IMG/VR virus record: IMGVR_UViG_2734482584_000005
Length of the DNA: 4,328 bases
Reading direction: 5' to 3' (one strand)
From: a virus
Lineage: Duplodnaviria > Heunggongvirae > Uroviricota > Caudoviricetes
Every line of letters begins with the position of its first letter. Position 1 is the first letter of the stretch. The position numbers were made by a program, and so were the translations under genes. The notes beneath the pieces are model-generated. The model had not been told where the DNA came from. It saw nothing but the letters and a program-made list of their open reading frames with translations, and ran no database searches. Below, piece after piece: positions 1 through 4,328 of the stretch.

Positions 1-305
1 GCCTCCGGACGGGCATCATCCTCCGTCATGGCACCGAGAAAATCATTCAGCGTACCGGGTCGGGAATCTTCATACACAGTGATGGTCCCGGCATGTGACG
101 GCGGGAATCCTTCCACCAACAGAATAACGCTGTACTGACCGTACTCAACGTCCATGCTGTAACGCCCGGCTTCATCCGGATTTTCTGAGGCCAGCGTGTT
201 CACCACCACCGTGGTGCTGTTACGTTTTGCTTTCAGCTGGATTGTGCAGTTCTGTACCGGTTTTCCTGTGCCGTCTTTCAGTACACCTGAAATCTTTACT
301 GCCAT
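1..305 (-). CDS. stf: Side tail fibre protein Stf, N-terminal fragment (partial; 3' end lies beyond the window start)
   Basis: Hand translation of the minus strand from ATG at 305..303 gives MAVKISGVLKDGTGKPVQNCTIQLKAKRNSTTVVVNTLASENPDEAGRYSMDVEYGQYSVILLVEGFPPSHAGTITVYEDSRPGTLNDFLGAMTEDDARPE..., open to position 1. This matches the conserved N-terminus of lambda Stf (orf-401) as I recall it. Position 64 nt downstream of lom reproduces the lambda J-lom-stf order. Absent from the ORF track, probably because it runs off the window edge. Confidence 0.87.
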   Translation of the reverse strand, partial: MAVKISGVLKDGTGKPVQNCTIQLKAKRNSTTVVVNTLASENPDEAGRYSMDVEYGQYSVILLVEGFPPSHAGTITVYEDSRPGTLNDFLGAMTEDDARPE

Positions 306-369: not shown

Positions 370-969
370 TCAGAACTTATAACCGACACCCACGATGAAA
401 CCGTCAGTGCGCCAGTCGCCACTGCCGGAGCCTTCATAAGCAATATCAATGGCCACGGATTCGGTCGGGTTAAACTGCACGCCAGCTCCCCACGCCAGAG
501 ACGTGTTGCTGTGGCGACCGTCATCACTTCCGGTCAGCACGTCGTGCGTTTTCCCCTTGTTGTCAGTTACGCGGAGATAATCCCCGGAGAAAGTCGACAC
601 ACGGCTGTAAGCCACACCCGCCATCGCATACGCGCTGAACCATTCATTCACGCGCACAGACGGCCCCGCCATTACGCTGAACCAGCGGTTACGAACGGAA
701 TCTTCATGCCAGCGGGTATCGCTGTAACGGGTCAGCTGGCGATTCTTGTCTCCTGCATAGCTGAATGACGTCACCAGCCCCAGCGTATCCGTAAACTCAT
801 AACGGTATTTCACGTTAATCCCGTTCAGATCATCACTGCCGGGAACGTTGGTCCGGGCATGAAGATACCCCGCGCTCAGCGTGGACTGATGTTCAGACGC
901 CCATGCAGGCGCACCGGATACGGCCAGGCAAATGGCTGCGGACAAAATGGCTGCACAAACTTTACGCAT
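370..969 (-). CDS. lom: Lom outer-membrane protein (Ail/Lom/OmpX/PagC family 8-stranded beta-barrel); phage moron / lysogenic-conversion gene
   Basis: 199-aa ORF with ATG at 969..967 and TGA at 372..370. The N-terminus MRKVCAAILSAAICLAVSGAPAWA-SE is a typical Sec signal peptide with an AxA cleavage motif (24 aa). Alternating amphipathic strands and a C-terminal YKF (terminal aromatic) are typical of OMP beta-barrels. Sequence and position immediately downstream of J match lambda Lom as I recall it. Confidence 0.93.
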   Translation of the reverse strand: MRKVCAAILSAAICLAVSGAPAWASEHQSTLSAGYLHARTNVPGSDDLNGINVKYRYEFTDTLGLVTSFSYAGDKNRQLTRYSDTRWHEDSVRNRWFSVMAGPSVRVNEWFSAYAMAGVAYSRVSTFSGDYLRVTDNKGKTHDVLTGSDDGRHSNTSLAWGAGVQFNPTESVAIDIAYEGSGSGDWRTDGFIVGVGYKF

Positions 970-993: not shown

Positions 994-1017
994 AAAAAAG
1001 GCGTCATTCCTGACGCC
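994..1017 (-). terminator. Rho-independent terminator between J and lom
   Basis: Minus strand reads GGCGTCA-GGAA-TGACGCC followed by TTTTTTATT: a perfect 7-bp stem (plus-strand 1000..1006 and 1011..1017), 4-nt loop, and T6 tract (plus-strand A-run 994..999). It lies about 23 nt downstream of the J stop codon. Confidence 0.62.
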
Positions 1018-1039: not shown

Positions 1040-4000
1040 TCAACGAATACTGATGCCGGAAGCCGCTTTTTTGGTCACAATCACCGTACAGTCGGTGATA
1101 TTGCCTGCCCCCTGATTGCCTTTCTGGAAAATCTTAAACTCCAGAGTGACGCTACCACCACCACTAGGCATATCAATAACTGCACTGTAACTACCGGGAA
1201 TGGCACCTTTAGTTTCTCTGGATGCGATTAATACGCCGTTTTTGCGAACTTCAAAACCATAACCCGTGTATCGCGTGCCTCCTGGGTTATTTCCGCTCCC
1301 CGGATCGTCATACGCTATACCGTTAAAAATAATGGGCGGAATAATAATCTGGCGGTCAAAGTTATGATCATCGCTTATGGTGACTGTAACCGTCCCGTTT
1401 GGTGTTTCCGTGTTACCCCACGTACCAGCCTGTTTCGGAAATGATTTGGATACAGCTTTAACGAAGTCACCTCTGACCTGAGTCGCCTCCAGCATGCCCT
1501 TAATCGTACAGTTTTCATTTACCGTGACATTGTTGAGCGTCCCGGCGTTCGCATTCACACTGCCACTGATATCCGCATTTTTAGCGGTCAGCTTTCCGTC
1601 CGGAGTCAGGGAAAATGCCGATGGATTTCCACCGCTGGTAATGGTGGGGGCCGTCAGGCGTTTCAGGAACACGTCGTTCATGAATATCTGATCGCCCTGA
1701 CCAACAAACATCGGTTTTGTGTTGCCATTCGCAGGATTAACCATCGCAATCCTGTCCGCCGCCAGCAGCACCTGACTCTGCATGCCGTCAGGGGTGTTCT
1801 CAATACCGGCACCAATACCCGCGATATAAAGGCGTCCGTCCTGCATCTGCTGCAGCTTCACAGCCCACATGCTGTTCAGGTTATTATTTGTATCAACCTG
1901 AACCTTCTGTATCTGCTGAATTGCCGCACTCTGGTCTTCCAGTTTCTTATTGACGGTCTGCGTGATTTCATTGCTGACATCCGTAATGGACGTCCTGATT
2001 TCAGCCAGGTCAGGCGCAAGCTGACCGTTATCAATCTGCGTCCACAGCTCCTGAGCCAGATGGGTTTTCCCTATCTCGCCTTTGAAAAAATCCAGATAAC
2101 CGGATGCATCATCACTCGGCTGACCAACAGCCTCCACGAATGCCGATTTGCCAACGGTGTTCACACTGCGGATATAAAAGTAATAATCATGGCCCGGTTT
2201 GATATTGATACTGGCGGCTATCCAGTACAGCGCCGTGCCAAGATAGCGTGCTGTGGTTTCAACCTGCCTGATATCCGCAATCCGCTTTTCCGAGAACCAG
2301 AACTCAAACTGTACCGTCGGATCATAAACCGCAAGATGCGGCGTGGCGGTTATCTGAAAATAGCCCGGCGTCAGCTCAATCCGCGACAGCGCTGCCGGTG
2401 CGGCAATCCGGAACGATACCGACGCCGGATCGCCCTGCTGCCCCCACGCATTTACTGCCCGGACTGTCAGCCTGTAGTTCCCCAGCGCCAGTTGTGTGAA
2501 GCGGTAAGTGGTTTCCGTCGTCCGGGCCGTGCTGACCAGCCGCTCACTGCCGTCATCCGCTGTTACGGTCAGACGGAGCAGGAAGCTCACGCCCTTCACC
2601 ACCTTCGGCGTGTCCCAGCGCGCCAGCACCTGATATTCCCCGCTGTCTGCGGTGACTTCGGCAGTCAGGTGCTGCACCGCTGGCGGCGTGACACCATTCA
2701 CCGTGCCGCTCTGGTCGCCGTCAAAGTGCGCCCCGTTATCCACGATGGCTTCTTTTTCCGGCACATGCTGCACGGCGGTGATGGCATACGTGCCGTCGTC
2801 GTTCTCACGGATACTCACGCAGCGGAACAATCGCTGGTGCAGCGTCGGCAGCTTCAGCCCCCACACGCTGTATTCAGCAACACCGTCAGGAACACGGCTC
2901 ACTTTTACCTTCACGCCGTCGGTGACGGACTGGACCTCCACGCTGACCGGATTCCCCTGCCCGTCAACCAGGCTTATCAGCGTGGTGCCGGAGGATGGCA
3001 GCGTGATTTCACGGTCGAGCGTCAGCGTCCGGGTCTGGCTGTTCACCGCCAGCACGCGCCCGCCGGTGCGGATACCGGCATAGTCATCATCGCAGATTTC
3101 AATGACATCGCCCGGTACATGACGAAGCCCTTCAGCACCCACGCTGAAATCCACGGTCTGCGTCTCCAGCAGTTCCGTTTTAATCAGCCACAGCCCGGCG
3201 CGGTGTGCCTGCCCCNNNNNNNNNNNNNNNNNNNNNNNNNNNNNNNNNNNNNNNNNNNNNNNNNNNNNNNNNNNNNNNNNNNNNNNNNNNNNNNNNNNNN
3301 NNNNNNNNNNNNNNNNNNNNNNNNNNNNNNNNNNNNNNNNNNNNNNNNNNNNNNNNNNNNNNNNNNNNNNNNNNNNNNNNNNNNNNNNNNNNNNNNNNNN
3401 NNNNNNNNNNNNNNNNNNNNNNNNNNNNNNNNNNNNNNNNNNNNNNNNNNNNNNNNNNNNNNNNNNNNNNNNNNNNNNNNNNNNNNNNNNNNNNNNNNNN
3501 NNNNNNNNNNNNNNNNNNNNNGGTGCGGATACCGGCATACAGCGCATCGCCGAGCAGAAATCACTGAGCACATCCCACGCCTTGCGCTGTGTGGTCAGCC
3601 AGGCATTACAGGTGATGCGCGGCTCCGTGCTGCCAAAGCCGTCCGGCACCGACTGGTCACAGTACTGGCCGATGACATACAGCGCCCATTTATCCACATC
3701 TGCCGCACCAAGACGTTTCCCCATGCCATAGCGCGGATGGGTCAGCATATCCCACAGACACCAGGCCATGTTGTTGCTGTATGCCGGTTTTAACGTTCCG
3801 TCCCAGATACCGCTGTATTGCCGCGTCTGCGGATTATAGTTCGACGGCACCTGCAGAATGCGCCCGCGAAGATGATAATTACGGCTCACCTGCTGGCTGC
3901 CGAACTGCTCCGAATCCACCTGTACGCCGACCAGTGCCGTGTTCGGGTAGCACTGTTTCACATCGATGATTTCGGTGTATGACGACCAGAGCGTTTTGTT

Positions 4001-4328
4001 CTGCAGCTGGTCTGTGGTGCTGTCCGGCGTCATTCTGCGCATCCGGATATTAAACGGGCGCGGCGGCAGGTTATCCACCACCACCGAGGCCAGATACTGC
4101 GAGGTGGTTTTGCCCTTAATGGTGATGTCTTTTTCCGTCACCCAGCCACCGTTACGCTGTATCTGAACCAGCAGGCGAACTTCAGACGGATTCCTGTCTC
4201 CCTTTGAGGTGGTTTCCACCAGTGCCTGTACACCGAAGGTAAAACGCAGTCGGTCAATGTTTGCCGACGTGATGGTCCGGGTGATCGGCGTGTCATATTT
4301 CACTTCCGTACCCAGCACCGTCTCGGAG
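1040..4328 (-). CDS. J: Tail-tip host-specificity protein J (central tail fibre), partial: N-terminal ~95 aa lie beyond the window end; interrupted by an N gap at 3216..3521
   Basis: ORF-track entry 1040..4318 (1092 aa) begins at an internal GTG; the same frame stays open to 4328 (...[62 protein letters not shown]...). This matches lambda J from about residue 95 onward, from memory. TGA stop at 1042..1040; C-terminus ...[14 protein letters not shown]. The FN3-like central region ([70 protein letters not shown]) is conserved. Confidence 0.95.
3065..3082. repeat. 18-nt exact direct repeat GGTGCGGATACCGGCATA; second copy at 3522..3539 abuts the N gap
   Basis: Compared base by base: 3065..3082 and 3522..3539 are identical, with the next base differing (G at 3083, C at 3540). 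On the minus strand the first copy encodes YAGIRT and the second encodes MPVSA, so the two copies sit in different reading frames of J. Confidence 0.85.
3216..3521. other. Run of 306 N (assembly gap or masked sequence) inside the J coding region
   Basis: Directly visible. 306 is a multiple of 3, so the J frame is preserved across it and the ORF track shows a run of X. Counting the 8 flanking nt on one side and 1 on the other, it spans 105 codons where lambda J has about 90 between the conserved motifs CMPV and GQAHRAGLW. Confidence 0.99.

Follow-up and report, generated by a model that had tools for sequence, protein, structure and literature searches.

Phage 434 uses OmpC as its receptor, and lambda carrying the J gene of 434 binds OmpC instead of LamB, the specificity being set by the C terminus of J (PMC3509688; PMC11101478, which cite Hantke 1978, Fuerst & Bingham 1978, and Wang et al. 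2000 for these receptor statements). Natural gpJ C termini placed on lambda also retarget particles to OmpC, and among such chimeras A8 accepts both the EDL933 and the K-12 OmpC, while 1A2 accepts only the EDL933 allele (bioRxiv 10.1101/2022.09.30.509847). The native receptor of Phi21 has been reported as LamB, with one mutation in J adding OmpC (PMC11336670, Meyer laboratory), and OmpC use by some lambdoid mEp phages is mentioned second-hand. The way in which binding triggers the tail has been described for lambda J (Ge & Wang 2024). Our results fit into this general picture of modular host range. We find a 434-type receptor end on a lambda-like J, and our reading is that this end was exchanged in one block with lom and stf, that it would recognize OmpC, and that it would act through a lambda-like trigger; we give this explanation as a whole a probability of roughly 0.8.

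The window, i.e., the whole stretch of 4,328 nucleotides analyzed here, comes from a lambdoid prophage of the E. coli group and comprises the 3' four-fifths of its J gene, then lom, and then the first part of stf. All of its genes lie on the minus strand in the lambda order J, lom, stf, and the whole window matches many E. coli prophages at about 97%, with J annotated as gpJ there. J, the tip attachment protein or central tail fiber (1040..4328, minus), is truncated at its 5' end by the window edge and remains open from 4328 to the stop codon at 1040-1042. The sole interruption is a run of 306 Ns at 3216-3521 that is in frame and masks 102 codons; in related contigs and genomes, both of its flanks align and the interval between them holds real sequence. 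The Pfam domains of the protein are, in order, Ig_J, Ig_J_second, Phage_Tail_Tip (PF09327), and Ig_GpJ_C. Directly after J, a consensus scan places a terminator-like hairpin with a T-run (1000..1017, minus), and phage 434 has an annotated terminator at the matching place. The lom-type outer-membrane protein gene (370..969, minus) encodes 199 amino acids of the 434 type and matches PF06316 (Ail_Lom) over the full profile with an E value of 2.5e-122. A second hairpin lies between lom and stf (322-343), and the side tail fiber gene stf begins with an ATG at 303-305 and runs off the window edge (1..305, minus); in matching E. coli genomes, its start is annotated as a prophage tail fiber N-terminal domain protein. 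The specificity of the side fiber itself is a property of the Stf C terminus, which lies beyond the window, and the total host range is not readable from J alone.

J is a three-part mosaic: its body is shared by lambda, 21, and 434, its shaft is of the phage 21 type, and its receptor end is of the 434 type. The body (2121..4328, minus), which comprises the hub domains and two FNIII/Ig domains, has 94 to 100% amino acid identity to lambda and 90 to 100% nucleotide identity to lambda, 21, and 434, being equally close to all three. In bins of 50 residues, identity to lambda J (NC_001416) was 0.94 to 1.00 over the unmasked parts of lambda residues 101 to 800, fell to 0.35 to 0.46 at 801 to 900, recovered to 0.76 to 0.84 at 901 to 1000, and was 0.30 to 0.38 from 1001 to the end. 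The first drop corresponds to the alpha-helical shaft together with the uppermost part of the central straight fiber (1691..2120, minus; lambda residues 806 to 921). In the most diverged bins of this block, the amino acid identity was 0.95 to 1.00 to phage 21 J compared to 0.15 to 0.60 to lambda and 434, and at the nucleotide level it was 95 to 99% to 21 compared to 25 to 71% to lambda. A phage 21 shaft probe matched window positions 2117-1738 at 96.6%. Compared to lambda and 434, the block has an insertion of 28 residues, which is also present in phage 21 J (UMO75436.1, OL657228), while the receptor domain of that protein is only 43% identical to that of the window. Between the two foreign blocks lies the conserved core of the central straight fiber (1547..1690, minus; lambda residues 922 to 969), which is kept in lambda, 21, and 434. 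Across the two swapped blocks, the G+C content is 0.47 to 0.51, down from about 0.60 to 0.64 in the J body.

The second drop is the C-terminal region, which holds the last straight-fiber layers and the receptor-binding domain (1043..1546, minus). An earlier note on this DNA, made from the sequence alone, had placed a diverged end of J at 1043-1546, and this interval corresponds exactly to the last 168 codons of J, with both of the peptides quoted there present in the translation. Only one of the 48 lambda residues 922 to 969 differs (P945S), and from S970A (window 1544-1546) onward the sequence diverges continuously, so the start given in that note was accurate to the codon. Its description of most of J as near-identical to lambda holds for residues from about 80 to 805, which are 94 to 100% identical where unmasked, and its description of the last 130 to 170 or so residues as patchily similar agrees with a BLASTP identity of 39% over the last 168 (67/173, with 17 gap positions), far below the value of more than 90% that the note had named as counting against it. 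The high identity to lambda J 970 to 1132 that would mark a lambda-type LamB-binding domain was likewise not seen, and a megablast search of complete E. coli genomes with the lambda domain segment did not recover the domain type of the window. The motifs pointed out as shared with lambda are indeed retained (NCTI, TVTV, DDHxFDRQI, DMPxGxG, and KKxAxGIS), but two of them had been quoted one residue too long. The earlier note mentioned neither the strand of J nor the second diverged block, and it did not follow the divergence into lom and stf.

The identity of the end is clear from comparison with phage 434. For the last 168 residues, BLASTP with 434 J (UMO75286.1, OL657226) gave 158/168 identities (94%) with no gaps, compared to 43% identity to phage 21 J, and in the J alignment, everything beyond about lambda residue 958 was 90 to 100% identical to 434, 25 to 53% to lambda, and 33 to 47% to 21. 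The ten substitutions relative to 434 J (434 numbering) are S970A, I978V, Q980E, A1004S, K1008Q, V1009A, D1019N, V1108I, H1110Q, and R1115G. Seven of the ten fall in the Pfam receptor domain. All ten occur commonly as natural variants within the type, to whose consensus the window is close. The domain is 99.4% identical to that of phages Evi and 2B8, and receptor domains that are 95 to 99.4% identical are found in Escherichia phages Evi, 2B8, ev207, 2851, mEp460, cdtI, and Tritos and in Stx2c and Stx1a prophages. Judged by its sequence, the end of J is thus a 434-type host-range determinant, near-identical to that of 434 and distinct from other types. The two J proteins differ further up: the helical shaft of 434 is of the lambda type, and that of the window, with its 28 extra residues, is of the 21 type.

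The likeness to 434 is not confined to J. DNA with 88 to 100% identity to 434 runs from about window position 1546 down to position 1, covering lom and the start of stf, and 434 has the J end, lom, and a near-identical stf start in the same order. The Lom protein of the window is 97% identical to its 434 homologue and far from lambda Lom, with a nucleotide identity to 434 of 92 to 99%, and the start of Stf shows one difference from the N terminus of 434 Stf in about 100 residues. The sequenced lambda h434 imm21 hybrid (OM418627), a classical host-range hybrid, is lambda up to about nucleotide 2100 of J and 99 to 100% 434 from about 2200 through lom and stf; the foreign C-terminal region of the window falls inside the 434-derived part of this hybrid. 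Since the J proteins of lambda and 434 hardly differ from about residue 735 to residue 957, the effective h434 difference within J is this same C-terminal region. The hybrid also carries lom, stf, and tfa of 434, and its sequence alone therefore cannot assign the use of OmpC to J, whereas the cited genetics does.

The domain belongs to a family with solved structures. The last 136 residues of J match PF12421 (Ig_GpJ_C; about 1046-1453, minus) with an E value of 1.8e-25 and 90 bits compared to a cutoff of 26.2, covering profile positions 1 to 134 of 135. In J this domain stands at the extreme C terminus, after two Ig/FNIII domains and the tail-tip fiber domain. A sequence search of the PDB returned the A8 gpJ (9wca) and lambda J (8xcj, 8xck, and 8iyk). 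The earlier note had proposed structure prediction as a check, and an AlphaFold2 model of the monomer, built on an alignment of 15 sequences, had a mean pLDDT of 75.7 and an all-beta core, with low confidence at residues 1 to 26 and 86 to 89. Its top four Foldseek matches in the PDB were J receptor domains (9wcb, 8xck, 8xcj, and 9wca; E values near 1e-13, TMq of 0.71 to 0.73), including the OmpC-bound 9wcb and the LamB-bound 8xcj, and the next matches were far weaker. On this model, the receptor domain is an Ig-like beta-sandwich as in the solved J domains. The A8 gpJ (9WCA, closed; 9WCB, bound to EDL933 OmpC), a natural OmpC-using J C terminus, is the best PDB match by both structure and sequence. 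However, its receptor domain is 21-like and only 44 to 45% identical to that of the window, and its OmpC contacts are therefore not transferable residue by residue.

Lambda J (8XCK, closed; 8XCJ, LamB bound) shares with the window the domain family, the domain order, the Ig-like fold, and a body that is 94 to 100% identical, but differs from it in the last 168 residues (39% identity and indels in loops) and in the diverged helical shaft. By analogy with lambda J, three copies of the Ig-like domain would form the distal end of the central fiber, and their distal loops would insert into a trimeric outer-membrane porin. Binding of the porin would then spread the domains and twist the straight fiber, and this movement would in turn flip the helical shaft and open the tail tip for the ejection of DNA.

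The earlier note held that the receptor could not be named from sequence, and this we would amend. The 94% identity of the domain to its phage 434 counterpart allows OmpC to be predicted, and it is likely that OmpC, and not LamB, is the receptor of the J protein in the window. A search of the literature yielded no direct receptor determination for phages whose domain is near-identical (Evi, 2B8, ev207, mEp460, 2851, cdtI, Tritos, PhiR26_1, ECOR13, and Stx phages). The type of domain does not map rigidly to the receptor, as seen with Phi21, which is only 33 to 43% identical to lambda in this domain and yet has LamB as its reported receptor, and with the A8 chimera, in which a 21-like domain uses OmpC.

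Two other receptor assignments have to be weighed against OmpC as used by 434. The ten substitutions might have shifted or narrowed the specificity relative to 434, toward certain OmpC alleles of wild E. coli, toward OmpF, or toward another porin. In favor of this, 1A2 takes the EDL933 OmpC but not the K-12 OmpC that A8 also accepts, and single J mutations add receptors in Phi21 (PMC11336670). Polymorphism within the 434 type clusters at positions 34 to 40, 80 to 81, 130, and 139 to 146 of the 168, mostly between the strands predicted by the model, and variation there may adapt the domain to particular OmpC alleles. However, the window has the majority residue of the type at most of the variable sites, the 18-residue long loop that is specific to 434 is unchanged between the window and 434, and K-12 strains are given as hosts in phage records of the type (MG1655 for PhiR26_1 and MC1061 for phi458), and we therefore consider such a shift unlikely. 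If it had occurred, this very common domain type, together with the independently assorting 21-type shaft, would be not a single "OmpC" type but a set of variants tuned to different alleles.

Still less probable, in our judgment, is that the diverged domain continues to bind LamB, with the receptor unchanged by the divergence. The native LamB receptor of Phi21 (PMC11336670) does mean that divergence from lambda alone is no proof of a new receptor. In the window, however, the domain is not only diverged from that of lambda but near-identical to that of a phage for which, as for lambda with its J gene, the papers report the use of OmpC. OmpC thus remains the receptor that we would predict.

The 434-type domain would have arrived by homologous recombination within conserved flanks, in one block with the 434-type lom and the start of stf, and the conserved core at 1547-1690 is probably where recombination joined the two swapped blocks. 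The earlier note had seen in the swapped C terminus on a conserved body a horizontal exchange, and the finding of a different domain type with sharp boundaries bears this out. An exact 180-base stretch of the domain is present in 38 IMG/VR contigs, the best of which are 99.6 to 99.9% identical to the window, with none identical over its whole length, and an exact search for the same stretch in a set of genome contigs gave no match. A probe for the 434-type domain found it in 34/38 of these contigs, 21 of which have a 21-type shaft and 12 a shaft of the lambda/434 type, with the shaft of the remaining one being unassignable; in related contigs, the shaft and receptor modules are thus combined independently of each other. 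When the phage collection was queried with the 168 residues, 74 records matched at an identity of at least 90%, 169 matched at less than 60%, and none fell in between. Gradual divergence from lambda by point mutation under diversifying selection, with no exchange of modules, has in its favor the published experimental evolution in which J residues at the receptor interface are targets of selection, but we reject it as highly improbable given the sharp boundary at residue 970, the indels between the window and lambda domains, the 88 to 99% nucleotide identity to 434 inside the block and its continuation into lom and stf, the identity of the shaft to 21, the independent assortment of the modules, and the absence of intermediates of the lambda and 434 types from the matches in the phage collection.

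The 434-type domain is widespread in E. coli. Megablast with the 507-base region at a coverage of at least 80% found it in 2,092/5,426 complete genomes (about 39%), whereas the equivalent lambda segment was found in 96, making the 434-type domain about twenty times commoner than the LamB-type domain of lambda. Many of the lambda-type matches are probably laboratory strains, as were all three (3/3) among the matches listed. A phage 21 segment matched 2,417 genomes at widely varying identities. Protein matches to the domain of the window also came from E. albertii and Shigella sonnei. Since the 434 type is so much more common than that of lambda in E. coli, lambda is a poor default model for the receptors of natural lambdoid prophages, and a prophage J such as this one can be labeled as 434 type and probably OmpC dependent rather than as LamB dependent by analogy with lambda. 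Beyond annotation, the significance is small. A 434-type receptor end on a lambda-like J has already been described and is a textbook case of modular host-range exchange, real but ordinary, and the modular J C terminus is already in use for retargeting lambda-based delivery particles.

Some features of the relatives of the window were observed in passing. In the window, lom is intact (199 amino acids and, as noted above, 97% identical to its homologue in 434). Of the IMG/VR relatives, the closest ones that were checked (99.6 to 99.8% identical, e.g., L014, L016, and L038, and L024 over part of the window) lack 83 bases of lom, a deletion that frameshifts and truncates Lom and that lies between two CGCCAG direct repeats (about 410-492 in the window and around 915-950 in L014). 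Repeated partial fragments of J are present in L024 (4400-13800), L008, L013, L025, L027, L032, and L039, and L024 has three tandem units of the 3' end of J with lom. The 9.4-kb stretch of L024 maps onto single 3.9-kb J-lom units in the best-matching complete E. coli genomes listed. Because of this collapse onto single units, an assembly artifact among coresident lambdoid prophages is more likely than a true cassette array.

A last observation concerns the region around the conserved core. In lambda, a peptide comprising J residues 902 to 933 is reported to trigger the prophage-encoded abortive-infection nuclease HepS, with F924 being critical (PMC13043305). The equivalent stretch in the window (1655-1750, minus) differs from lambda at seven other positions, but the straight-fiber core that the window shares with lambda J includes this trigger residue, the equivalent of F924 being kept at 1682-1684 (in QIFMN). 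Going by this conservation, the J protein of the window would probably still trigger HepS.
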